Source: an uncultured Oxalobacteraceae bacterium (GTDB lineage: Bacteria; Pseudomonadota; Gammaproteobacteria; Burkholderiales; Burkholderiaceae_D). Taken from it: a stretch of 64,000 bases of DNA. The notes beneath the pieces are model-generated. The model searched no databases. It was not told the DNA's origin and saw only the letters and a program-made list of their open reading frames with translations. The stretch is from positions 80,425 to 144,424 of the forward strand of contig CAITOF010000042.1 of NCBI GenBank assembly GCA_903893945.1, read 5' to 3'. Positions 1,840 through 57,915 of the stretch are shown here, in pieces. The translations under genes and the position numbers were made by a program. Each line of letters begins with the position of its first letter. Position 1 is the first letter of the stretch.

Positions 1840-2544
1840 ATGATCACACTACGACTGTCCCGGGAACGCGGTTATGCCGACCACGGCTGGCTGAAGAGCT
1901 ATCACTCTTTTTCATTTGCAGGCTATTACGACCCCGCCTACATGGGCTGGGGAAATTTGCGGGTAATTAACGAAGACCGGATTGCAGCCGGAAGCGGCTT
2001 CGGCACACACAGTCATCGCGATATGGAAATTATCAGCTACGTCATTTCAGGGGCGCTGGCCCATAAAGACAGCATGGGCACCGGCACATCCATTCCGCCG
2101 GGCGATGTGCAGCGCATGAGCGCCGGTAGCGGCGTTTCGCACAGCGAGTTCAATCACTCCAGCGAACAAACAACCCATTTTTTCCAGATCTGGATCGAAC
2201 CCGACAGGCTCGGCCTGCCTCCCAGTTATGCGCAAAAAACCTTTACCGACCAGGACAAGCGCGGCAAACTGCGCCTGCTTGCGTCACCCGATGGCGCGGA
2301 CAATTCGATTTCCATACATGCAGACGCCTCGCTGTACGCAGGACTGTTTGATGGCGACGACCCATGGACCATGCCACTGGATCCAGAACGTAAAGCCTAC
2401 CTGCATCTGGTACGGGGCACCATCCAGGTTAATGGCCATGCATTGCAGGCGGGCGACGCAGCGCTGATAGCCAATGAATCGGCACTGACACTGTCTGACC
2501 CCAAACAGGCTGAAGTGCTTTTTTTTGATCTGGCGGCTACCTAG
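1840..2544 (+). CDS. Pirin-family (YhhW-like) cupin protein
   Basis: RGYADHGWLKSYHSFSFA, FGTHSHRDMEIISYV, VQRMSAGSGVSHSEFN, FFQIWIEP. Start placed at the second Met (1840). Confidence 0.93.
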   Translation: MITLRLSRERGYADHGWLKSYHSFSFAGYYDPAYMGWGNLRVINEDRIAAGSGFGTHSHRDMEIISYVISGALAHKDSMGTGTSIPPGDVQRMSAGSGVSHSEFNHSSEQTTHFFQIWIEPDRLGLPPSYAQKTFTDQDKRGKLRLLASPDGADNSISIHADASLYAGLFDGDDPWTMPLDPERKAYLHLVRGTIQVNGHALQAGDAALIANESALTLSDPKQAEVLFFDLAAT

Positions 2545-2564
2545 ACTGGTCGCCAGCCACCTGT

Positions 2565-3395
2565 TCATGCGCGTTGCCAGAGTACCGGAAACAGCGGATG
2601 TTCCATGACCGATCCGGCCGGTAACTGCTCACGCAATCCGGGAAATTCGGGCGACGTGGCCCAGTCGCGGGGCGCATGACGAATGTCGTCGCCCATGAAA
2701 CGGACCGAGAATACCCGACGTCGCCGGTCACCGTCGACACCGCCCGCCGCATGCAGTGTCAGCATGTGAAAACAGACCACGTCACCCGGCTCGACCTCCC
2801 AGCCCAGAATCGGAAACCGCTCGCGTGCTCCCTCGATATCGGGCAGATCGGCAAGCTGCCCCTCCGGGAACCATTTGGCCTGATTATCCATAAATGTGCG
2901 GGGCATCAGCCACGGGCCCTTATGCGATCCCGCCACAAATTCCAGAGTCGAATGACGCCGCACCGGATCGACCGCTATCCACATACTACAGCTCTGCGAA
3001 CCTTGTATGTTGTAATAGGGCTGGTCCTGATGCCATGGCGTGCGTTTGGTCGTGCCAGGCTCTTTGACCAGCATGTGGTCGTGGTACAGCCGCGCCGTAT
3101 TACTCTGCATCAGGCGTGCGGCCACCGCGCCGACCGGCGACTCCATAATAAAGCCGCGATAGTCCTCATTGGTCTGCCAATTGCAGAAATCTTCCAGAAA
3201 TGTACCCGGGGTGCCGGGCTCATTGGCCACTTTAGCGCGTTCACTTGGCCGGGCTATATTGGCGTCAATGCCGTTTCTGAGCCGATTGATTTCCCCTTCA
3301 TTGAGCAAGTTGCGCAGACAGATCGCGCCGTCGCGTTCAAATGCCCGGATCTGTTCAGGTGTAACGCCAGCCATGGCGCGTTGCATAGTATCCAT
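2565..3395 (-). CDS. Phytanoyl-CoA dioxygenase (PhyH)-family Fe(II)/2OG dioxygenase
   Basis: TPWHQDQPYY (HxD), distal His in FHMLTLHAAGG, RRVFSVRF. Confidence 0.88.
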   Translation of the reverse strand: MDTMQRAMAGVTPEQIRAFERDGAICLRNLLNEGEINRLRNGIDANIARPSERAKVANEPGTPGTFLEDFCNWQTNEDYRGFIMESPVGAVAARLMQSNTARLYHDHMLVKEPGTTKRTPWHQDQPYYNIQGSQSCSMWIAVDPVRRHSTLEFVAGSHKGPWLMPRTFMDNQAKWFPEGQLADLPDIEGARERFPILGWEVEPGDVVCFHMLTLHAAGGVDGDRRRRVFSVRFMGDDIRHAPRDWATSPEFPGLREQLPAGSVMEHPLFPVLWQRA

Positions 3396-3687
3396 TTTAA
3401 TTTTCCTGTCGGGTCTGGCCCAGGTTCAATGCCACAGGCCGGCCGGCTGATCGTCATGAAACCGATTCCGGACAGCCGCTGATTCATGGATCATCGCATT
3501 TTTTGGCAACTATGGATAACTTTATTGATCTCCAGCGCGTTTTTCATTAGTATCACTGCGGTGTTGAAATAAATTCATGTTTCTGCTGAATCTGCTTTTT
3601 TTCGGAAACTGACCGGATTTTGACGTCTGTTTTTCTTCTGCGCCCGGTACCGGATGCAGAGCCTACCCATTGCAATGGAGTCACACC

Positions 3688-4503
3688 ATGAAAAGAATCA
3701 AGCATGCGATGTTGTTGCTGTCCCTGTTATCCACCCTTGGTGCCGTACCGGCATGGGCCGACGATGCCCTGCAGGCCGTGATCAACGGGGCGCAACGTTC
3801 TGACGCCCACAAGGCGCGCGACGCAGCGCGTCATCCGCAGCAGACACTGGAATTTTTCGGCATCACTCCCACCATGACGGTCGTGGAACTGAATCCGGGC
3901 GGCGGCTGGTACACCGAAATCCTGGCGCCCTATCTGCGGGCCGGCGGACACCTGATTGAAGCGTTTCCCGACCCCAAATCGAAGGACGAAGAAAATCGCA
4001 ACGATGCCGCCGGCATACAGAAAAAAATGAAAGCCAGTCCGGAGCTTTACGACAAGGTAAAAACGGCAACCTTTGAACCACCTGAAAAGATAAAATTTGC
4101 CAGCGATAACAGCGTGGATCTGGTGCTGACTTTCCGCAACGTGCATAACTGGGTGGGCTTTGGCGACGAGAAAATGCAGGCGCTGTTCAGGAGTGTGTTC
4201 AAGAGCCTGAAAAAGGGCGGCGTATTCGGTGTCGTTGACCATCGCCTGCCGGCTGACAGGGTACAGGACAAAGACGCATCATCCGGTTATGTTCTGGAAG
4301 CCTATGTGATCAGGCTCGCTGAAGGCGCCGGATTCAGACTCGCGGCAAAGTCCGAGATCAATGCCAATCCAAAAGATAATGCCGATCACAAGAATGGCGT
4401 CTGGGCTCTGCCGCCCACGTTCGGCAACCGGGAGGAGGATCACGACTTGTATGCCAACATAGGCGAAAGTGACCGTATGACGCTGAAATTTGTGAAACCC
4501 TAG
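3688..4503 (+). CDS. Exported class I SAM-dependent methyltransferase-like protein (COG4798 type)
   Basis: Signal peptide (AVPAWA-D); RDAARHPQQTLEFFGI, VVELNPGGGWYT, VLTFRNVHNW, LKKGGVFGVVDH, DRMTLKFVKP. Confidence 0.8.
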   Translation: MKRIKHAMLLLSLLSTLGAVPAWADDALQAVINGAQRSDAHKARDAARHPQQTLEFFGITPTMTVVELNPGGGWYTEILAPYLRAGGHLIEAFPDPKSKDEENRNDAAGIQKKMKASPELYDKVKTATFEPPEKIKFASDNSVDLVLTFRNVHNWVGFGDEKMQALFRSVFKSLKKGGVFGVVDHRLPADRVQDKDASSGYVLEAYVIRLAEGAGFRLAAKSEINANPKDNADHKNGVWALPPTFGNREEDHDLYANIGESDRMTLKFVKP

Positions 4504-4588
4504 CTAGCGGTCCGCGCGGTTCGCACCGGGCGGAGCGGATCAGCCCGCCTGACATCCGTGCCGGTCCCGGGTTAGGCGTGACTGTACA

Positions 4589-6673
4589 TTACCAGATGTT
4601 AACCTGGTCCGGTTTCGGCCGGTACATCGGTTGCCCGGGCTTCACATTGAACGCTTCGTGAAAATCCGAAATCACCGACATGGGACCAATCACACGCCAT
4701 TTTGCCGGCGAATGCACATCCGACAGCAACGCTGTGCGCAAGGCGGCCTCGCGCGCCTGTGACCGGTTGCTTAGGGCAGCGCCCATAAAGAATCGCTGCA
4801 TGGGCGTTAAACCGCCCAGCAGGTTTCCCTGCTTGAACTGCTGCGTGGTCCTGAACGCACCGATCGCCAGCAGCAGGCCGCCATGGTCCGCTATGTTCTC
4901 GCCTTCCGTGGCCCTGCCATTGATGTGTAATCCACTGACCGGTTCGTAGGCGTTGAACTGCCTGATGATCAGGTCGGCACGCTCGGCGTATTGCCGGGCG
5001 TCGTCTTCATTCCACCAGTCGCTGAGATTGCCGGCGGCATCATACAGGCGGCCTGAATCGTCGAAACCATGGGTGATTTCGTGCCCTATCGTTGCACCTG
5101 AATAGCCGTAGGCAACAGCATCATCAATTGCCTCATCGTCCACACCCGGAATCATAAAAATGACAGCAGGCATGACGATTTCATTATTTGACGGACTGTA
5201 GTAGGCATTGAAGGTTTGCGGTGTCATCGACCATTCGGTACGATCGACCGGCCTGCCATAGTGGTCCAGCATATCCCTGAAACGCCAGCGATTGGCGTTC
5301 AGCATATTGGTCGCATAGGATACCCGCCCGACCGTCAGCCCGGTGTATTCCTGCCACCGGTCCGGATAGCCCACTTTCGCATTGATGGCCGCCAGTTTTT
5401 TTCTTGCCATGACCTTGGTGGGTTCACTCATCCAGTCAAGCTGATTGATGCGCTCGAGGTAGGCCGACCGGATGGATTCAACAAGTTTTACATAACGCTG
5501 TTTTACGGCGTCAGGAAAATTTTCCCTGACGTACAGTCGACCGGTCAACATGCCCATCGCAGCGTCCTGCACGTCCAGCACACGTTTCCAGCGGGGACGC
5601 TGTTGCTGCTGTCCGTTTAACACCTGCCCGGTAAAGCGGAATGATTCATTGTCAAAGGCACGACTGAGATAGGTCGAGTAATCATTCACGAGTCTGAGCA
5701 GCAGATAATTCCGTAACACCGATACCGGCGTGTTTTCCAGCTGATTCTGAAGGCTGCTGAAATACTCGGGCTGCCCCACGATGAGCGTATCCGCATGCAA
5801 TTGCCAGCGCGCCAGATAATCGTTCCAGTGTATCGACGGTGTATGGTGCATGGTAAATTCGGCGACGGCCAGCTTGTGATAATTCGCCAGCGGATCATTC
5901 AGGTCTTCAAGCTTGCGCGAGGCCTTGGCCAGCGCGGTTTCAAAGTCCATGACCTGAGCCGCCGAATGTCTGGCCACCCTGGCACTAACACCGCATAACT
6001 GCAGCAGCCGCGCGAGGTGACTGACATAGGCTGTGCGTATCGCTGCGATGTCGCGGTCCGGATTCACATAGAAATCACGATCCGGAAGGCCCAGTCCGCC
6101 CTGTGATACATGAATCGCCATGACATCACTGGCGGTTTCATCCTGGGCCACGCCAATATCAAAGAACGTCCTCACTTCAATTTCGCGCAACCGGAATGCC
6201 GTGTCAATGGCATCCTGAACCGTGCTGATTTTATGAATACGCCCGATTTCAGCGTCGAGTGGATGAATACCCTGAGCGTCGGCGGTTCGGGTGTCCATGG
6301 CGGCGGTCCAGAAGTCGCCTATTTTCTGCAGATCTGTGCCATCCGGTGAACCAGTGCTGGCCGCGGTCTGGTTGATTTTCAGAAGTTTCTGGTAAACCTG
6401 TTCCTGCACCTCGTTTTCTATGCCCCACGAGGGTTCCGAGGGCGGCACCGGATTTCGCTTTAACCAGCCACCATTCACGTACTGAAAAAAATCCACCGCC
6501 GGACTGACCGAGGTATCCGCCCCCGACCACAGAAAGTCGGGCTTGCCGCTGCTCTGAACGGTCCCGGTGTCGCTCGCAGCCGCCCGGTTCATCGTTGCCA
6601 TCGCCAGCACCAGCACCACGCTGAGCGCGACGCCGACTTTTCTGTGCATGCTCTGCATCATGGAGTTCGTCAT
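4589..6673 (-). CDS. M13-family (neprilysin/endothelin-converting enzyme-like) metallopeptidase, exported
   Basis: VNAYY-like FNAYYSP, zinc motif GHEITHGFD, GENIAD. Start uncertain (6673, or 6721 with an AGGA RBS). Confidence 0.92.
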   Translation of the reverse strand: MTNSMMQSMHRKVGVALSVVLVLAMATMNRAAASDTGTVQSSGKPDFLWSGADTSVSPAVDFFQYVNGGWLKRNPVPPSEPSWGIENEVQEQVYQKLLKINQTAASTGSPDGTDLQKIGDFWTAAMDTRTADAQGIHPLDAEIGRIHKISTVQDAIDTAFRLREIEVRTFFDIGVAQDETASDVMAIHVSQGGLGLPDRDFYVNPDRDIAAIRTAYVSHLARLLQLCGVSARVARHSAAQVMDFETALAKASRKLEDLNDPLANYHKLAVAEFTMHHTPSIHWNDYLARWQLHADTLIVGQPEYFSSLQNQLENTPVSVLRNYLLLRLVNDYSTYLSRAFDNESFRFTGQVLNGQQQQRPRWKRVLDVQDAAMGMLTGRLYVRENFPDAVKQRYVKLVESIRSAYLERINQLDWMSEPTKVMARKKLAAINAKVGYPDRWQEYTGLTVGRVSYATNMLNANRWRFRDMLDHYGRPVDRTEWSMTPQTFNAYYSPSNNEIVMPAVIFMIPGVDDEAIDDAVAYGYSGATIGHEITHGFDDSGRLYDAAGNLSDWWNEDDARQYAERADLIIRQFNAYEPVSGLHINGRATEGENIADHGGLLLAIGAFRTTQQFKQGNLLGGLTPMQRFFMGAALSNRSQAREAALRTALLSDVHSPAKWRVIGPMSVISDFHEAFNVKPGQPMYRPKPDQVNIW

Positions 6674-6689
6674 CGCAGGTATGCCGGGA

Positions 6690-8921
6690 TCATTGACCGG
6701 GATGGTAGGTGCGTTCGGCATGTTTCCTGACGTCGTCCTCGTAATACAGCACATCCTTGAATTCTGCCCGGCTGTATCGTTCCGCCTGATCGTTGAAATG
6801 CGCTGACGCCGGGTCACCGCTTTCACCGCCGGCCAGCATGCTCTTGGCATGTATTTTCGGGCCAAATTCGACCACGGCGACAAAGCTGTTGCCAACGTCA
6901 CCGTATATGCGCCGGGTTTTTCCCGGCGTCCTCGACTCAAACGACGCCAGCGAACCCCAGACAGAAGCAGTAAATGGCACCGGCAGACTGGGTTTTGAAT
7001 CATCGAAATCCTGCACGATGTCGCCGCTTACATGCTGGAACCGATTGATCTCACCCCAGGGTGTTTTCCAGCTGCCGAAATCCTGTTCCAGCCTGGCGGA
7101 CACGAGGGCCAGTGATGCCAGCTTTTCCTGACGGCTGGTATTTGCCATCATGAAGTCAAAGATCTCCCAACTGTCTTTGCTGACATTTTTTTCATTGGCC
7201 TGGTGGTCGATTTTCTTCATCATGTCCTGCCCCCAGCAAACTGCCAGCGCCGTCGCCACCGAATCGCCCGCAAAGCGCAAATCCCATGCACGCAGCAGAT
7301 CAATCTGCGGCTTTAACTGTGCCTTGAGCGGGTCTGCCCCGTCTGTTTCATCCCACGCTTTGACCAGCGCCGGTACCAGTACCTCGAACGCCGGCAGATA
7401 GCTGTCATACGCCGCGCTGATTAAACTGTCCAGTGTAAAGTTATGCTGGTTCTGCAGCACCCGCACAGCATGAAAGCCCCGCGCATTGGCCGGATTGGTC
7501 CACATATACGATGGATAATCTTCCTTTTTGGGACTGTAGTCACCCGCTGCAGTAAAAGGGGCGTTGTTGGTGTTCTGAATCCAGCCACTTTTCGGATTGA
7601 ACAGCGTAATCGTGTCTTTAACGTCGTGCAAGCCATGCCATTCGGTATCCGGGTTGCTGCCGTCGACCGGCTGGCTCCAGTCAAAGCGGGGGTCACGTTT
7701 CGGCACAAAATTGCCATTAAAAAAGGCGATATTGCCGTCCGCGTCGGCATACACGGTGTTATTGGATGAATTGGTACGCAACTCCATTACCCGATAAAAT
7801 TGCGCATAGTTTTTTGCGCGGGTCCGCGAATACGATTGCATCAGGGCCTTCATCGGTTCCTGCATCAGGCGCACGGCGACCCACTGGTTGCCGGCCTTGC
7901 GCACGATGGGTCCATGCTGACTGTAATAGACCGTGACCTTTTTTTCCGCCATCTGACCCGCGGTTTTGTAGCGCAGCACTTTTGTGACGGCCTTCAGGGG
8001 GCGCTGCTCCGTTCCAAACTTATACACGAAACCGGCGCCGTCCTTGGCACGAGTCACCGTTTCCAGATATTCGTCGATCACATTCGCGCCACCCGACGTA
8101 TGCATCCAGCCAACGCGGGAATTGAATCCCTGATAAATAAAGAACTGTCCCCATGTCACCGCGCCGTAGGCGTTCAGGCCCGTCTTGCTGATCATGTGAA
8201 CTTCGGGCCGAAAATAAAATGAGGTATGCGGATTAATCAGCAGCAGGGCGTGGCCGGATTCGGTGAGGGACGGTGCAATCGCAAAGCCATTCGAGCCACC
8301 GGGTTCCGGGTTGGCCTTGACAGGTTTCCGGTCGGACTGGTCAAGAGCCACCAGCGTGGCTGCGGCACCATAGAACTGTTCAAGCTGCTTCAGATCGATA
8401 TCTTCAATATCGCCGCCAATACTGCCTTCACTGAAAGTGAGTGCCATCCAGGGTTCAAAATGTGTCAACAGTTTCGGATGAACCTCGGGGTGTGTATACA
8501 GATAGAAATTCAGACCGTCCGCAAAACTGTCCATCAGTTTCCTGAGCCACAGGGGACTGGCCTTGTATCTGGCCTGCATGTCGGCCGGATCAATAAACAG
8601 TTTCATGCGCAGGTCACTGTACAGTGCAGACTCGCCTTCCACTTCGGCCATACGACCGACGGCATTGATGTAGTTACGTTCGATCCGGTTAAAGCTGTCT
8701 TCGGCCTGGGCATACAGCACACCGAAAACGGCATCCGCGTCGGTGTCACCGTAGACGTGCGGAATACCCCAATTGTCACGGATAATCTGCACGTGCTGCG
8801 CCTGTGCCTTCCAGCGTTTCAGTTCAGCCTGGTCAGGGCTGGCCAGCGCTGTGCCGGTAACGGCGGCCAGGCACAGGAGCGATACAAGTCGGGCAGACAA
8901 TCTTAAACTGGGTTTCAACAT
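6690..8921 (-). CDS. Penicillin/acyl-homoserine-lactone acylase family (Ntn hydrolase), exported
   Basis: IIRDNWGIPHVYG, YAQAED, beta-chain nucleophile motif GSNGFAIAP...LLLINPH; signal peptide. Confidence 0.9.
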   Translation of the reverse strand: MLKPSLRLSARLVSLLCLAAVTGTALASPDQAELKRWKAQAQHVQIIRDNWGIPHVYGDTDADAVFGVLYAQAEDSFNRIERNYINAVGRMAEVEGESALYSDLRMKLFIDPADMQARYKASPLWLRKLMDSFADGLNFYLYTHPEVHPKLLTHFEPWMALTFSEGSIGGDIEDIDLKQLEQFYGAAATLVALDQSDRKPVKANPEPGGSNGFAIAPSLTESGHALLLINPHTSFYFRPEVHMISKTGLNAYGAVTWGQFFIYQGFNSRVGWMHTSGGANVIDEYLETVTRAKDGAGFVYKFGTEQRPLKAVTKVLRYKTAGQMAEKKVTVYYSQHGPIVRKAGNQWVAVRLMQEPMKALMQSYSRTRAKNYAQFYRVMELRTNSSNNTVYADADGNIAFFNGNFVPKRDPRFDWSQPVDGSNPDTEWHGLHDVKDTITLFNPKSGWIQNTNNAPFTAAGDYSPKKEDYPSYMWTNPANARGFHAVRVLQNQHNFTLDSLISAAYDSYLPAFEVLVPALVKAWDETDGADPLKAQLKPQIDLLRAWDLRFAGDSVATALAVCWGQDMMKKIDHQANEKNVSKDSWEIFDFMMANTSRQEKLASLALVSARLEQDFGSWKTPWGEINRFQHVSGDIVQDFDDSKPSLPVPFTASVWGSLASFESRTPGKTRRIYGDVGNSFVAVVEFGPKIHAKSMLAGGESGDPASAHFNDQAERYSRAEFKDVLYYEDDVRKHAERTYHPGQ

Positions 8922-52932: not shown

Positions 52933-53180
52933 GAAATTTATCTCCGGAATATTTTTATATGAACTTCATTACACACTTTTTGTGTGGTCTGCAGCGTACG
53001 GATCCTGATTCAATAATGCAATCAAGATACGACACAAGATCCGCTTCACCTGTACGATACAGTTCGTTCTGACCTTTGCTGTCACCGTTGTCTGGACGAT
53101 CGATAACAGCAACTGGCACAGCCCGACGTGTCCGGGAAATTGAATCTCAGTAAGAGAGTGACAGAACCGAACCGGATCGT

Positions 53181-53206
53181 CCTTGACTTCGGTTAAGATT
53201 TATTAT
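53181..53206. promoter_or_regulatory. Oxalate-cluster shared motif, site 4 (upstream of oxlT)
   Basis: CCTTGACTTCGGTTAAGATTTATTAT; 18/26 identical to site 3, same orientation relative to the minus-strand operon. Confidence 0.5.
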
Positions 53207-53261
53207 CTGTCCCGGATTACTCTTTACTCCGGGCAACAGGTCAATGTACGATCGTCGATCC

Positions 53262-53597
53262 TCAGAAGCCAACTTCGTGCCGCTGGATTTCAGCCCAGTC
53301 TATCGGTGCAGCGGCACGTGCGCCACGTGCAACAATTAACTCATAACAGCGGTTTTTTGCCGTGTGGATCATATCGGTCAAAAAATGAACATCATAGGCT
53401 TTGAGCAGGTGCGCCTGTTGGGTTTCCAGATAAGTCTGGATACTCGATTTCGCCCCGTCGTGGCTCTGAAGGTGCTGGTAAATCTCCTCATTCCAGTGCC
53501 ACTTCAGTCCCAGTTCACAAAAGGCCGCATTGTAGGCGTCCAAATGTATATCAATCGGGTTTTCTGCTGAAAGATCTTTGCTGGCTGCACTGCACAT
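53262..53597 (-). CDS. Small protein resembling the cap region of the HAD phosphatase CbbY, without the catalytic core
   Basis: HLDAYNAAFCELGLKWHWNEEIYQHL...IHTAKNRCYEL; GGGGAG RBS before the ATG; no DxD motif. Confidence 0.7.
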   Translation of the reverse strand: MCSAASKDLSAENPIDIHLDAYNAAFCELGLKWHWNEEIYQHLQSHDGAKSSIQTYLETQQAHLLKAYDVHFLTDMIHTAKNRCYELIVARGARAAAPIDWAEIQRHEVGF

Positions 53598-53897
53598 AAT
53601 GGCTCCCCTTCGCTGGTTAGTCTAGGCTTTCAGACACGTTTCGCTTCAATGCGAAACCTTGGGAAGCATCGTATTCTCAATGAATGATAAGTAATAGTTA
53701 AAGTTTTTAATAAAAATCATAACGTTTTGCTTATGATCTTCTTGAAATTTGAAGCGCGGCAGTACTGCCATACGCAGCCCGCGTCCTGTGCCGGCGCGGT
53801 AATTGTGCGAGTGCAGCAAATATTCTATCAAAACCTGCTGATAATACTGTATAAATTGAGTTATATTAATTGTGCGACTGCACAAAAGGAGGTCGGC

Positions 53898-54068
53898 ATG
53901 CCGTTATTACCTGAGTCACCCCAGGAACCATGGAACCATTATTTTCCACTTATCCCGTGCCATAAACCGTCTGCCCATCCCTTTGAAATCGAAGACTGTA
54001 TGGAATGGCAAATTCCTCGCGTCCCATTAAAGGACCTCCCGGTAGGCCTGATTTCGGATGAGATATGA
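53898..54068 (+). CDS. Putative 56-aa Pro-rich small protein
   Basis: AGGAGG at 53887-53892 before ATG 53898; MPLLPESPQEPWNHYFPLIPCHKPSAHPFEIEDCMEWQIPRVPLKDLPVGLISDEI. Confidence 0.45.
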   Translation: MPLLPESPQEPWNHYFPLIPCHKPSAHPFEIEDCMEWQIPRVPLKDLPVGLISDEI

Positions 54069-54171
54069 GTTTTTCCATACACTAGTTCAGAAAACGCCAA
54101 CCGGCTGGCGGATAAAACCTTGAACTGCCTGGATGAAGTTCATGCAGTTCAATGAACAACTGATAGTCAAT

Positions 54172-54310
54172 TCATGCGTTGACAGCCAATTTACGTAACA
54201 CTTTCGGGTATTCAGATGCCACGCGTAAGGGGGTGAGCGCCGCGCCAGACGGTTTCCGCCTGCCCTGCTCCCAATCTTGAAGCGTTCGCACTGTCGACAA
54301 TACGCCGACT
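54172..54310 (-). pseudogene. C-terminal remnant of an XRE-HTH (HigA/MqsA/YiaG-like) antitoxin
   Basis: Hand translation VGVLSTVRTLQDWEQGRRKPSGAALTPLRVASEYPKVLRKLAVNA*; an in-frame stop lies shortly upstream and there is no ATG. Confidence 0.7.
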
Positions 54311-54646
54311 ATCAAATGCTTCCTTTGCCAGACCAGGCATCCCTAATGATCGAATCAAAAAATGTTTATCTATCGCAGGACAAACATGTTTTTATAAGTA
54401 ATGTCTAAACGGTTCAGGAAGGATTGAAAACAGCCGGCAAGTTACGCGCGCCATGGCATTTGATAAACGTCTGCTGCATAACATGAAGTCTTGTTGAAAA
54501 GTATCCATTCTGATTTTACGTGAACGGCGCCAATGTACCTGTTAAAAGCCAGTTGGATTCCATTTGCATACGCTCGATGTTTGCCGTGACGATTCAATAC
54601 GACGTTGTACATAACTGTCATTCAACATCACATTTAGCAGAGGCAA

Positions 54647-56059
54647 TCATTGAGAGACAAGTACGTAGTTGGCTTCCACCCCACCGCTAACCTCTTTTAC
54701 AATGCTGCTAACCTTTGGCAAATAGTACAAGTCATATATACGTGAATGCCCTGTTGTGTGCTGACCCTCATTTAGGCCTGCTTGTCTCGAAGTCCAGTAA
54801 CCCTGCTCTTGTTCCACACAAAAAATCCTAAATGCAGGTTCCTTGGTGTCGGCGAAATCAATTTCCACTATGTCATCCACAACACAATAAATTTTTCTTG
54901 TACTACGGTCTTCTCTATTATTATTATGAGAATCACTATCAAAATTATACGATGTATTTTCTTCCCATATTCTGTGCAAGGAATAGTTGACCGCAACGGA
55001 ATTGCCAACTTTAATTGGGAATAATTCATTTGGATTGCCAGAAATTACATTAATCTCTATATTATCCGTCCCAATTGTATTTCCAATTAGGTGACCATTT
55101 ACTCCACTATTAGTTTTCGTCGTAGTTTTAGTTTCAATTGTACCTGGCCATGGAAGAATGCCATATTTCCCTTTGTAGGTTTTAGTTATATCCATTTTCG
55201 TGTGATTGTCGAACGGTCCATTTTCATATGTATATCTGCAAGTTTTCACTGCGGAGGAGAGTGTATTACGGTTGATAGTACAGACTTCCTTCTCCTTATT
55301 TTCAAGTGCCAAATGTAACGGCGGCGCAGAAAGTGCAATCGCCGGAATAGCAGCAGAAGGACGTTTGAGCGCAAGATTGCGGCGTAGTTGCATCAACCTA
55401 TCAACAGCTTGATCATAGTAGACAGAAAATGGAAATTTCTGGATAAATTGCTGTGTATCCGAGGGATCTTCAGACTGTCTAATAAGCTCCCATCGTGCTG
55501 CTTCAGGATCATCGTTGATTGATATTTTACCGTCGCGCTCTGCATCACTCAGTGTTTTGATTGCAGTGGTCAGTTTTTGTGCTTCATCCATCGTCTTATT
55601 GGCGAATGTCACAACTAGTGGGCATGTTGCATTTTTTTGATTAAATTCAAAGACTACTGCGCCATGTGCTGGGTCATTGATTCTCGGCCCAAATATATTT
55701 GTGTCAAGATTATTCATGTAATAAAAGTGTTCGCTAAAATCCTTGAAATGTACTCCTTTGGTTTTGTCAATTGATGCACAAATAGGATATGCTTTACTTG
55801 GTTCTCTCTGATCCGCGAATGGTATGATCGCCCAATCCACCGTGCCACCAAAACTACCTTGTTGCAAAGCGGCAGCATTCAGATATTGTTGGGCTTCTTC
55901 AATAGACATGACTAAGTTGGAAGGTGGAATTTCTTTTCTAGCAGCATGAATGTCACTAAGCCCGGTATTTCGATCCCAATCGACACTTGTTGTTCCACAA
56001 CCAGAAAGTAAAACCAACACGCAAATTGCGATAGTAAATCCATTTTTTCCTTTTTTCAT
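54647..56059 (-). CDS. Lipoprotein of unknown function
   Basis: Lipobox LSG-C after MKKGKNGFTIAICVLVL; ATG overlaps the caspase-gene TGA (ATGA); AT-rich. Confidence 0.8.
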   Translation of the reverse strand: MKKGKNGFTIAICVLVLLSGCGTTSVDWDRNTGLSDIHAARKEIPPSNLVMSIEEAQQYLNAAALQQGSFGGTVDWAIIPFADQREPSKAYPICASIDKTKGVHFKDFSEHFYYMNNLDTNIFGPRINDPAHGAVVFEFNQKNATCPLVVTFANKTMDEAQKLTTAIKTLSDAERDGKISINDDPEAARWELIRQSEDPSDTQQFIQKFPFSVYYDQAVDRLMQLRRNLALKRPSAAIPAIALSAPPLHLALENKEKEVCTINRNTLSSAVKTCRYTYENGPFDNHTKMDITKTYKGKYGILPWPGTIETKTTTKTNSGVNGHLIGNTIGTDNIEINVISGNPNELFPIKVGNSVAVNYSLHRIWEENTSYNFDSDSHNNNREDRSTRKIYCVVDDIVEIDFADTKEPAFRIFCVEQEQGYWTSRQAGLNEGQHTTGHSRIYDLYYLPKVSSIVKEVSGGVEANYVLVSQ

Positions 56060-57516
56060 TGGACACCTCCACTTGCCATAACAATATCACCAGTTTTAGG
56101 AAATCCCTCATCCAAGGCGTTTGCCCAAACCCTTTTCCCTGCTTTTACTATTACCCTGTATCTCAATGTCCTTCCATCCTTTTCTATATAAATAACGTCC
56201 TGGAGAAGGACCATGTGATCGGGTTCTGCTTCAAAAATAATCTGCTTGCCGTTAGAAATTATTTCAACAACTTTGCCCACAATAATTGACTGGTGTTCAA
56301 GCCCTTGAGCGAAGGTATTCGCCGTAGGTTTAACAGAAGCATCCAACTTAAATTTCTCGATTCGTGATTGTGCTAAAGCAGCAAAGCGCCCTGTTGGAAA
56401 ACGATTAAGAAAATCATTATAAGCTTCCAAAGATTGTGTTTTTTCCGCTAAGTCCCAAGCATTTTTTTCGGCTAACGCATCGTTCTGAGGCTTGTCGCTG
56501 GTAACTATGCCCAGCTTGCTTTTGGCCAGCTCGGCGTATTTTCCAGTTGGATATTGTTGCAAGTAGAGTTTATATCCTTCCGTTTTGCCCATATTATTGA
56601 TCGCTGTCCAGAAATTTCGTTCTTCATCATTAATTATTGTTGACGACGGTCCAGTGTTAGGGTCTACATTAGCAAGAGTAACGAAGGACGGACCCACACT
56701 AGCAATTTGTGGCGGCATTCCTGCTTGACCACCAGTAAAATAAAAATCACCATCAATGGGGGAACTTGCCAGCCACGGTTGCTGTGTACCACTAGTTGCT
56801 TTTTTTACCTTTACACCAACCTGATTAAATACATTGCGCACCTCCATGCCAGGTGTGTTGAGCGTTTCCGCCAATGCTAATGTATAAGGGCTGTCTGCCC
56901 CAGCACCATCCTGTGCCACATTGCCAGGTTGAGTTGCGTACGAAATTAAAGTGCCTTCTGGAGCCTGCATTTGTGCTAAGCCTCCACTAGTTGCTCGTAA
57001 TCCACGACCACCGAACGGATTATTACGACATGCATCGAGTACGACCAGATTCAATTTTGTTCCAGCGGCTTCCATTTGTTTTAACACAAGTTGCACATCC
57101 ACCATCTGAAAATCCAGATCTGTTTCATTTACCGGATTCGCATCCACCGGAACCAACCAGTTAGCACCACGCACTTGCAAACCATGACCAGCGTAATAAA
57201 AGAAGGCAACATCCGCACCAGCCAATTGTTTACCAAACGCATTTACAGCACGATCAAATCCGGGTTTGTTTAGGTCCAGTTGCGCACCTCCACCCACCAA
57301 TTCAAAACCCAAGTCTTTTAAAGTTTTGGCGATGAGGCGGGCATCATTTTTAGGATTTTCTAACGCGTGTATATTTTGATATTTGCTCATACCAACAACT
57401 AATGCAACACGCTTGCCGACTGTTTGGACAACATTAACAGCACGATCGGCTGGTTTGGCTGCGGGAGAATTAAGCAGTGCCAGTATGAATAGCGAACAGG
57501 TAAGATAGTTGAACAT
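56056..57516 (-). CDS. Exported caspase-family (peptidase C14) protein with helical repeats
   Basis: Signal-like N-terminus; KRVALVVGMSKY, LENPKNDA, His in FFYYAGHG, Cys in VVLDACRNNPF, ISYATQPG, SPYTLAL, QQPW; two W..Y..YL..YP.G..A.LA repeats. Confidence 0.9.
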   Translation of the reverse strand: MFNYLTCSLFILALLNSPAAKPADRAVNVVQTVGKRVALVVGMSKYQNIHALENPKNDARLIAKTLKDLGFELVGGGAQLDLNKPGFDRAVNAFGKQLAGADVAFFYYAGHGLQVRGANWLVPVDANPVNETDLDFQMVDVQLVLKQMEAAGTKLNLVVLDACRNNPFGGRGLRATSGGLAQMQAPEGTLISYATQPGNVAQDGAGADSPYTLALAETLNTPGMEVRNVFNQVGVKVKKATSGTQQPWLASSPIDGDFYFTGGQAGMPPQIASVGPSFVTLANVDPNTGPSSTIINDEERNFWTAINNMGKTEGYKLYLQQYPTGKYAELAKSKLGIVTSDKPQNDALAEKNAWDLAEKTQSLEAYNDFLNRFPTGRFAALAQSRIEKFKLDASVKPTANTFAQGLEHQSIIVGKVVEIISNGKQIIFEAEPDHMVLLQDVIYIEKDGRTLRYRVIVKAGKRVWANALDEGFPKTGDIVMASGGVQ

Positions 57517-57785
57517 GACTTGCTTCCAATTTATAAATCGGGATTTACGCTCAACTGTCAGGAACTTGCGGGGAGTACGCCGTCGCGTGAGCACGATTCC
57601 CTGCTCCTAACCATAGCATTACCGACACAGACGATCTGAAAACAATAATTTAAAAATTGAAAAATAGCAACTTCATTACTACTGTACGTGATCGACAAAT
57701 CACTAATTGCAAGCATACCGTTTCCACATTGCCTGAAATTTCCTGCACAACCGCTACACGTTGAAAGAATGTATTCAGCGAAAAC

Positions 57786-57819
57786 AAAAAAGGCTACAAG
57801 CATAAACTTGTAACCTTTT
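57786..57819 (-). terminator. Terminator downstream of tRNA-His
   Basis: Minus strand AAAAGGTTACAAG-TTTATG-CTTGTAGCCTTTTTT. Confidence 0.7.
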
Positions 57820-57838
57820 GATTATTCTACCGAATTCG

Positions 57839-57915
57839 TGGGGTGATCGATGGGGTTCGAACCCACGACAACAGGAATCACAATCCTGGACTCTACCAAC
57901 TGAGCTACGACCACC
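57839..57915 (-). tRNA. tRNA-His(GTG)
   Basis: Minus strand GGTGGTCGTAGCTCAGTTGGTAGAGTCCAGGATTGTGATTCCTGTTGTCGTGGGTTCGAACCCCATCGATCACCCCA; G-1, anticodon GTG, CCA. Confidence 0.97.

Follow-up and report, generated by a model that had tools for sequence, protein, structure and literature searches.

The 64,000-nucleotide (nt) stretch analyzed here, referred to as the window, is part of contig CAITOF010000042.1 from an uncultured Oxalobacteraceae bacterium. On its minus strand it carries adjoining genes for a predicted exported, caspase-like protease of family C14 (P0001) and a predicted lipoprotein (P0002). Judging from their recurrence, the two genes are a real, conserved but rare cassette that is present in several unrelated bacteria. 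We tentatively propose, with a probability of roughly 0.45, that P0002 binds a short domain at the C terminus of P0001 and in this way retains or regulates the enzyme at the cell envelope. To our knowledge, no member of the exported paracaspase-like clade has a known substrate, role or function. The source genome (G000) is a 3.65-Mb draft in 125 contigs, and loci found elsewhere are labeled with an L and a number. The coordinates of the pair in the window are as follows.

56056..57594, minus strand: gene for the predicted exported Peptidase_C14 (paracaspase-like; PF00656) protein, 486 amino acids (aa) from the ATG at 57516 or 512 aa from the GTG at 57594

54647..56059, minus strand: partner lipoprotein gene, 470 aa, coupled to the protease gene through an ATGA overlap and a GGAGG ribosome-binding site

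The TGA stop codon of the C14 gene overlaps the ATG start codon of the lipoprotein gene by 4 nt (ATGA) within the junction sequence ggaggtgtccaATGAaaa, and both open reading frames (ORFs) lie on the minus strand at these positions, as described in the initial annotation. The GGAGG motif is located 6 nt 5' of the lipoprotein ATG. As read from its sequence, this junction is a classic case of translational coupling.

Relatives of P0002 are scarce. A word-indexed search of 5.8 billion proteins with P0002 alone returned no relative. The same type of search with an alignment of the P0002 family returned only two proteins, and it was probably swamped by candidates bearing the helical repeat described below. 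Using phmmer against 1.84 billion proteins, three full-length relatives were found (P0122, P0123 and P0128). Further members come from two freshwater Rhodospirillaceae metagenome-assembled genomes (MAGs), one of which carries three of them (L013, L014 and L015). With about seven members identified, the family is very rare, and a search of 40 relatives of the window genome found none. In 300 genomes from the order of the Rhodospirillaceae MAG, full-length members occur only in that MAG, and the other matches cover only the repeat.

The initial annotation had suggested a functional link between the C14 gene and the lipoprotein gene, and the genomic neighborhoods of these relatives support it. 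Five loci elsewhere are informative, and in three of them (L010, L011 and L013) the P0002 homologue is found directly downstream of a C14 gene, which is of the same subtype each time. In L013, a contig of the Rhodospirillaceae MAG, a C14 gene that is cut at its 5' end encodes the helical repeat (expect value, E, 3e-16) and the same C-terminal domain as P0001, and the lipoprotein homologue follows after 25 nt. The L010 gene, also 5'-cut, ends in the same C-terminal domain and is separated from the lipoprotein homologue by 29 nt. In L011, a 5'-cut gene with both the repeat and the C-terminal domain is followed at 0 nt by the lipoprotein homologue, and a further exported C14 gene is next. In L014, the lipoprotein gene is preceded by a divergent response-regulator gene and by the end of an ORF with an FGE-sulfatase domain. 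The L015 contig is too short to be informative and was left out of this count.

Downstream of the pair in L013 (positions 2497-4958) are genes for an exported subtilisin-like (S8) protease and a 214-aa exported protein, as well as the start of another C14 gene. By its predicted gene products, this region is a cluster of exported proteases.

The feature that distinguishes paired from unpaired proteases is the C-terminal domain. More than 7,800 homologues of P0001 were scored, and 119 close homologues were scanned for the repeat and for this domain. A hidden Markov model (HMM) of the domain matches only P0001, its C14 paralogue on contig C4 of the source genome, P0006 (among the 119 homologues) and the upstream genes of L010, L011 and L013. 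One weak match was found in 400 other Pseudomonadota genomes. All six C14 genes that encode the domain (in the window, C4, L010, L011, L013 and L017) abut lipoprotein genes, whereas none of four close C14 homologues without it (P0016, P0019, P0011 and P0012) has an adjacent lipoprotein gene. The neighbors of these four are unrelated, and three of the four carry the repeat. The initial annotation had named a complete lack of co-occurrence with C14 homologues elsewhere as a refutation of its reading, and the arrangements at L010, L011 and L013 contradict such a lack.

Comparison of the individual domains adds a second line of evidence. In its caspase half, P0001 shares 72% identity with P0006 and 44% with L013. 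For the C-terminal domain of P0001, the scores are 100 against L013 and 38 against P0006, and a P0002-type lipoprotein is present at L013 and not at P0006. The C-terminal domain follows the lipoprotein type and not the caspase phylogeny. This incongruence between domains and the adjacency of six out of six versus zero out of four genes are evidence, in small numbers, that the C-terminal domain and the lipoprotein constitute a functional unit.

Two of the pairs have partners that differ from P0002. In the second pair of the source genome (contig C4, 3323-5456), a gene for a 239-aa lipoprotein precedes an exported C14 gene by 172 nt. This lipoprotein shares the GCGTT lipobox with P0002 and carries a clear copy of the repeat at its C terminus (E 1.6e-13), and the protease has one repeat and the same C-terminal domain as P0001. 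The C4 pair resides in a low-GC islet (0.43-0.47) beside a tRNA-Ser(GGA) gene (C4:2527-2617). L017 is a forest-soil contig (43-3290) that encodes P0006, the closest protease homologue with the full architecture, along with four paralogous lipoproteins of ~142 aa, one upstream and three downstream. The L017 lipoproteins have a conserved LMPE..AAK helix and two cysteines, and they match no Pfam family and lack the repeat.

The protease has the following parts, numbered from the ATG start.

57454..57516, minus strand: signal-peptide-like N-terminus, MFNYLTCSLFILALLNSPAA followed by KPA, from reading of the sequence

56740..57414, minus strand: caspase catalytic domain (residues 35-259) with His111 (YAGHG) and Cys163 (DACR), from Pfam and PDB-sequence alignment

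56512..56625, minus strand: helical repeat 1 (residues 298-335), independent E 1.5e-18 with the repeat HMM; weak BamD/YfiO matches cover this region

56359..56472, minus strand: helical repeat 2 (residues 349-386), independent E 1.4e-17 with the repeat HMM

56071..56295, minus strand: unnamed beta-rich C-terminal domain of ~75 aa (residues 408-482), from the domain HMM

P0001 matches the Peptidase_C14 model (PF00656) over its full length (model positions 1-233; E 3.5e-37; 128.8 bits versus a cut-off of 21.4). Its His and Cys dyad is intact, as first noted, and His111 and Cys163 align with the catalytic motifs YYAGHG and LDxCR, which are common to P0001 and MALT1. All ten PDB sequence matches are to MALT1 (for example, 3V4O and 3UO8), and the best of these has an E of 1.9e-10. 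Since MALT1 is the only solved sequence relative and these motifs align, the catalytic domain of P0001 is paracaspase-like and not metacaspase-like. P0001 is described here as a predicted cysteine protease of family C14. MALT1 differs from it in being cytosolic and in having death and Ig domains. P0001 is bacterial, predicted to be exported and associated with other partners, and Pfam finds no death or Ig domains flanking its protease domain, only PF00656 and a weak YfiO match. The C-terminal domain has no Pfam or NCBIfam family. Its PDB profile matches were rejected as artefacts, for they were only to repetitive 'Pizza' designer propellers and had no significant stretch.

The signal-like N-terminus reported earlier is present. 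It consists of a 13-residue hydrophobic core, LTCSLFILALLNS, and a cleavage site between PAA and K that is located just before the first strand of the caspase domain. The same kind of N-terminus directly precedes the caspase domain in all repeat-bearing paralogues and homologues inspected. Because of this sequence and its constant layout, P0001 is predicted to be Sec-exported and periplasmic.

The start codon of the protease gene is ambiguous. An in-frame GTG is found at 57594 with an AGGAG motif 9 nt on its 5' side. Initiation at this codon adds 26 Arg/Lys-rich residues that constitute a basic n-region, which has no counterpart in the ATG form. Since the GTG form supplies these elements, and since public gene calls for this protease exist at 512 aa as well as at 486 aa, the true start may lie 78 nt upstream of the ATG at 57516.

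The best matches of P0001 come from metagenomes and from Alphaproteobacteria, for instance Bradyrhizobium and Rhodopseudomonas. Two catalogues from 2012 describe exported caspase homologues whose C-terminal domains vary (Asplund-Samuelsson et al., PMC3501461; Coggill and Bateman, caspase-YARHG, PMC3355149). Those from Bradyrhizobium, Rhodopseudomonas, Afipia and others have the same catalytic domain as P0001 (52-79% identity to the best matches), and they share its signal-like N-terminus, the helical unit after the caspase domain and the use of variable C-terminal modules. P0001 differs in that it ends in the rare ~75-aa domain and is coupled to a lipoprotein. Neither the domain nor the lipoprotein partner is mentioned in these two catalogue papers, and literature searches yielded no description of the lipoprotein partner, the repeat as a unit or the C-terminal domain.

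Homologues of P0001 are fused to a variety of other domains. These include PDZ, PDZ with Peptidase_S41 (Prc-type; for example, P0008), PG_binding_1, SPOR and YARHG, as well as cyclophilin, TctC-like binding proteins, DUF4189, FGE-sulfatase and Sel1. Envelope or cell-wall roles or targets are suggested for the exported-caspase clade by its fusions to PDZ, Prc-type S41, SPOR, peptidoglycan-binding and YARHG domains (PMC3355149; PMC3501461).

The source genome itself has seven C14 loci, including those on contigs C38 (3437-5233, plus strand; 5265-7031, minus strand), C43 (3-1481, minus strand) and C6 (150495-152369, minus strand; 155320-156834, plus strand). In three further C14 genes of this genome, the repeat is followed by a PDZ-containing tail, Sel1 repeats or an FGE-sulfatase-like domain. 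The two C6 genes lack the repeat, and one of them encodes a DUF4384 domain. They flank a gene for a 696-aa membrane protein that has no Pfam match.

The lipoprotein has a more unusual composition, and its parts are listed below. The secondary structure was taken from AlphaFold2 (AF2) models.

55997..56059, minus strand: lipoprotein signal peptide and lipobox, LLSG followed by C (Cys21), with Gly at +2, from reading of the sequence and the family alignment

55514..55996, minus strand: N-terminal alpha/beta domain (residues 22-182), from alignments and AF2 secondary structure

55394..55504, minus strand: single divergent helical repeat (residues 186-222), from HMM, phmmer and AF2

55295..55393, minus strand: linker that is basic and then Ala/Pro-rich, beginning LRRNLALKRPSAAIPAIALSAPP, from the sequence and alignment

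54650..55294, minus strand: beta-rich C-terminal domain (residues 256-470) with seven or eight long antiparallel strands, from AF2

The lipobox, MKKGKNGFTIAICVLVLLSG followed by C, is canonical (pattern [LVI][ASTVI][GAS]C), with a basic n-region and a hydrophobic core, and Cys21 is invariant in all seven family members. According to the Lol rule of E. coli, lipoproteins with Gly at the +2 position go to the outer membrane. P0002 is therefore predicted to be a lipoprotein that probably resides in the outer membrane. Together with the signal-like N-terminus of the protease, the lipobox agrees with the envelope location that was originally proposed for both proteins. The N-terminal domain has conserved Cys94 and Cys146 residues and a terminal helix with the pattern A..L..A.E..G, and the C-terminal domain has conserved Cys392 and Cys414 residues. 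These putative pairs (C94/C146 and C392/C414) fit an oxidizing compartment.

An Ala/Pro linker follows the repeat of the lipoprotein, as the initial annotation stated (KRPSAAIPAIALSAPPLHLAL). Conserved positions in this region are R226, A230 and P246, and residues 246-285 are predicted to be disordered, with predicted local distance difference test (pLDDT) values below 50. The AF2 model was made with a seven-sequence alignment and has an overall pLDDT of 62 and a predicted template modeling (TM) score of 0.55. Block-mean pLDDT values are ~56-90 over residues 291-450 of the C-terminal domain. An earlier single-sequence model was discarded (pLDDT 33.7). Foldseek found no match to the P0002 model below E 0.01 in PDB or BFVD, and its top rows (pore-forming toxins and YmcC) were not used, with TM scores under 0.3. 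P0002 has no Pfam or NCBIfam family, and a profile search of PDB sequences was empty.

The pair is found in a segment of distinctive base composition at the edge of a tRNA gene.

52950..57838, unstranded: low-GC islet that contains the pair, GC 0.35-0.47 versus ~0.55 in both flanks; the left boundary is approximate

57839..57914, minus strand: tRNA-His (GTG) gene at the islet edge, directly upstream of the pair

Horizontal acquisition of the pair, which the initial annotation proposed, is supported by this composition, by the adjoining tRNA-His gene and by comparison to related genomes. Neither the P0001 gene nor the P0002 gene is found in seven genomes of the same genus. The tRNA-His gene is kept in all seven and is beside murI in at least six, and the DNA beyond the tRNA is unrelated. 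Within the genus, tRNA-His appears to act as a hotspot for islands. A search for att-like direct repeats of the tRNA-His end, intended to delimit the islet, found none. A 14-bp terminator-like hairpin (57788-57819) follows tRNA-His, so the pair would need its own promoter. Other than the pair, the islet contains only ORFs without a family assignment.

In one of the same-genus genomes, the tRNA-His flank (L035; G002:C39:7040-15040) is also low in GC. It encodes a transposase of the IS6 type and the C-terminal portion of a very long Rhs/YD-repeat protein, after which there are two small candidate immunity genes. In the window, the ~1 kb downstream of the lipoprotein gene (53600-54646) has no convincing ORF and no Rfam match. 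A 21-nt sequence in it, TAATTGTGCGAGTGCAGCAAA at 53800, is directly repeated as an 86% copy at 53867, and positions 54095-54110 form a terminator-like hairpin.

We propose that these genes make up a two-gene envelope proteolysis cassette that was gained by horizontal transfer. Both proteins would be made together by coupled translation (ATGA and GGAGG) and then exported, and the lipoprotein would be anchored in the outer membrane. By docking on the C-terminal domain of its partner, the lipoprotein would keep the protease at the outer membrane and regulate how it reaches substrates. The helical repeat would not be the specific docking surface in this arrangement. Rather, it would be an extracytoplasmic binding unit of general use, through which both proteins reach one and the same envelope component. 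What the sequences show is the gene structure, the catalytic residues, the export signals, the repeat, the character of the islet and a recurrent pairing that correlates with the C-terminal domain. That the two proteins bind, which surface they use, in which direction control runs and what is cut are elements that the proposal adds.

A tethering or control model has precedent in lipoproteins that hold or control periplasmic proteases, namely LbcA-CtpA of P. aeruginosa (PMC8764530, PMC11021448) and NlpI-Prc of E. coli (PMC8996183). In both systems, an outer-membrane lipoprotein of the tetratricopeptide repeat (TPR) type acts with a soluble periplasmic protease, and the fusions to S41 and PDZ domains among P0001 homologues are reminiscent of these enzymes. 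The resemblance is a functional analogy. The proteases of the known systems are S41 serine proteases with PDZ domains, whereas P0001 is a C14 cysteine protease in which Pfam finds neither domain. P0002 has a single TPR-like unit and two unassigned domains, and no sequence relationship to the known lipoproteins was detected. LbcA-CtpA and NlpI-Prc are known physical complexes. P0001 and P0002 are known from gene coupling and co-occurrence, from which we infer binding.

Several observations weigh against this proposal. For one P0002 homologue (L009/L012), which is solitary, the surrounding 6 kb contain no C14 gene. The sample in which the pairing recurs is small, representing ~5 independent lineages, and most of the contigs are short. 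Inheritance of the cassette as a unit might by itself explain why the C-terminal domain and the lipoprotein occur together. Finally, three types of lipoproteins accompany the C14 genes that have the C-terminal domain, and the mature N-terminal domains of these types are not detectably homologous. Three partner types that cannot be aligned would be unexpected for adaptors that bind a common domain, and this looks more like the behavior of fast-evolving inhibitor or immunity genes. Homology between the three N-terminal domains had been considered and was dropped: hhalign gave probabilities of 71% and 94% with the signal peptides included and 13%, 9% and 1% for the mature sequences.

The main rival to the docking model takes up this last point. 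P0002 could be a dedicated inhibitor that silences a potentially self-damaging periplasmic protease until the envelope is damaged, a phage enters or a similar trigger occurs, or it could protect the producer from its own secreted protease. The order of the genes, with the enzyme first and then a tightly coupled small partner, is what such a system would have, and the fast evolution of the partner lipoproteins into several unrelated sequence types agrees with it. Similarly, the four small paralogous lipoproteins that accompany P0006 resemble immunity-gene arrays, the solitary homologue at L009/L012 resembles an orphan immunity gene, and the cassette is carried in an islet. However, this islet has no delivery system, toxin-trafficking domain or defense gene. 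A three-domain lipoprotein of 470 aa is also large for a simple inhibitor, and it has no resemblance to known protease inhibitors in Pfam, in the PDB-sequence profile search or by Foldseek. We regard an immunity-like role as unlikely on balance, though as a serious contender.

Alternatively, the lipoprotein could be a tethered pro-protein that is a substrate of its partner. Cleavage of the basic Ala/Pro linker by the protease would set the beta-rich C-terminal domain free or activate it. The disordered linker that joins two folded parts is preceded by conserved basic residues (R226, then K/R), and cleavage after Arg is the specificity of MALT1, to which the catalytic domain is closest among solved structures. 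Translational coupling would set the stoichiometry of enzyme and substrate. Against this possibility, the lipoproteins of L017 and C4 pair with C14 genes yet have no equivalent C-terminal domain, and no fold match points to an effector function for a released domain. We consider this explanation improbable.

A third possibility was put forward in the initial annotation, which suggested that the two proteins dock on each other through a shared helical repeat. The repeat is a ~35-residue, three-helix unit with the signature W-x5-S-x-D-x6-F-[LI]-x2-[FY]-P-x-[GS]-x6-A-x2-R-L. A first HMM was built from six copies in the C14 paralogues of the source genome and run on the 26,036 ORFs of that genome. 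It recovered the C14 paralogues and the contig C4 lipoprotein (E 7e-11) and nothing else notable. Both repeats first described in the protease are confirmed with the C14-paralogue HMM (E ~1e-18 each). When the model was iterated with C14 sequences only, it found 88 copies in the 119 close protease homologues, nearly always directly after the caspase domain.

The copy in P0002 is the most divergent. With the C14-only, 88-copy HMM, it scores 12.7 bits (E 0.12 over the 26,036 ORFs), and P0002 is ninth in the list behind six true positives that are C14 proteins or lipoproteins and one other ORF. The same HMM matches the repeat in the homologues of P0002 with E values from 3e-9 to 1.5e-3. In the phmmer search, P0002 had 26 matches below E 1e-3, and the 23 that are not full-length relatives cover only residues ~170-250. 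The C14-type repeat is present in 22 of these 23, which include nine caspase proteins and four Ser/Thr kinases. Arrays of 5-16 copies are common among them, and such arrays are retrieved by P0002 at E values down to 4e-9. Because these matches carry the C14-type repeat and the C14-only HMM finds it in P0002 homologues, we accept that P0002 carries the predicted repeat as well. P0002 by itself scores weakly with the C14-only HMM. Within this segment, W190, S196, D198, P199, D201 and F205 are invariant in the family. AF2 places helices at residues 185-194, 199-208 and 215-231, with block-mean pLDDT values of ~80-93.

Repeat arrays in relatives match PF13525 (YfiO/BamD) at E values down to 3.7e-18, and the repeat is therefore a BamD-type, TPR-like unit. 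It has no dedicated Pfam family. The nearest known units are the BamD/YfiO and YbgF-type TPR repeats (PF13525, TIGR03302 and PF13174), and the two proteins of the window have sub-threshold matches on the same region of the BamD/YfiO profile. P0001 and P0002 score 16 and 12.5 bits with PF13525 (cut-off 25) and 21.5 and 17.9 bits with TIGR03302 (cut-off 81.4). Neither protein is orthologous to BamD, and only the repeat unit resembles BamD helices.

Docking through this repeat would be in keeping with its presence in both proteins, with the common use of TPR-type units for protein contacts and with the C4 pair, in which both partners also carry it. However, the repeat is widespread where there is no partner. 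It is common in unpaired C14 homologues, including three of the four discussed above, and it also occurs in Ser/Thr kinases, stand-alone arrays and other exported caspases. The L017 partner lipoproteins lack it, and the copy in P0002 has diverged furthest. From this distribution, the helical repeat is a generic module of the exported C14 clade, and pairing tracks the C-terminal domain instead. The original docking proposal is not upheld, and we consider it quite improbable.

Caspase-like proteins also act in anti-phage systems, such as gasdermin operons, type III-E Craspase and EACC1-associated caspases, of which the initial annotation mentioned the gasdermin and Craspase cases. These proteins share the C14 fold with P0001. 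They are cytoplasmic and have gasdermin, Cas or NTPase neighbors, and there are none such at P0001-P0002: no gasdermin, Cas7-11 or other defense gene adjoins the pair in the islet. PADLOC reports a generic caspase match to P0001 (E 3e-9) and none to P0002. The EACC1-associated caspase model (NCBIfam NF047832) scores P0001 at 52.9 bits versus a cut-off of 140. By these comparisons P0001 and P0002 do not belong to the gasdermin, Craspase or EACC1 type of system, and no link to gasdermin or CRISPR immunity was found.

A more speculative scheme, which we consider very unlikely, would make the pair an extracytoplasmic counterpart of effectors that caspases activate, such as gasdermin. In it, the lipoprotein would be a tethered pro-effector, and the protease, docked through its C-terminal domain, would upon a trigger cut the conserved basic linker to free the long-stranded beta domain onto the outer membrane or cell wall as an envelope self-destruction or defense switch.

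The least credible explanation, that the genes are chance neighbors in the islet with no common function, draws on the one lipoprotein homologue that stands alone and on a family too small for firm statistics, but it is already unlikely given the 4-nt overlap with its internal ribosome-binding site, the same arrangement in at least three other loci of different lineages and a second analogous pair in the same genome.

If P0002 does dock on the C-terminal domain of P0001, then this cassette would provide a cognate partner and an assignable docking domain, which together would be an experimental handle on a very large family of exported paracaspase-like proteins. Two unannotated modules are also identified here, and either could become a family model: the helical repeat, which exported caspases share with lipoproteins and Ser/Thr kinase ectodomains, and the ~75-aa C-terminal domain. 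If it is true that the lipoprotein controls the protease, the principle represented by NlpI-Prc and LbcA-CtpA would extend to a different protease clan.

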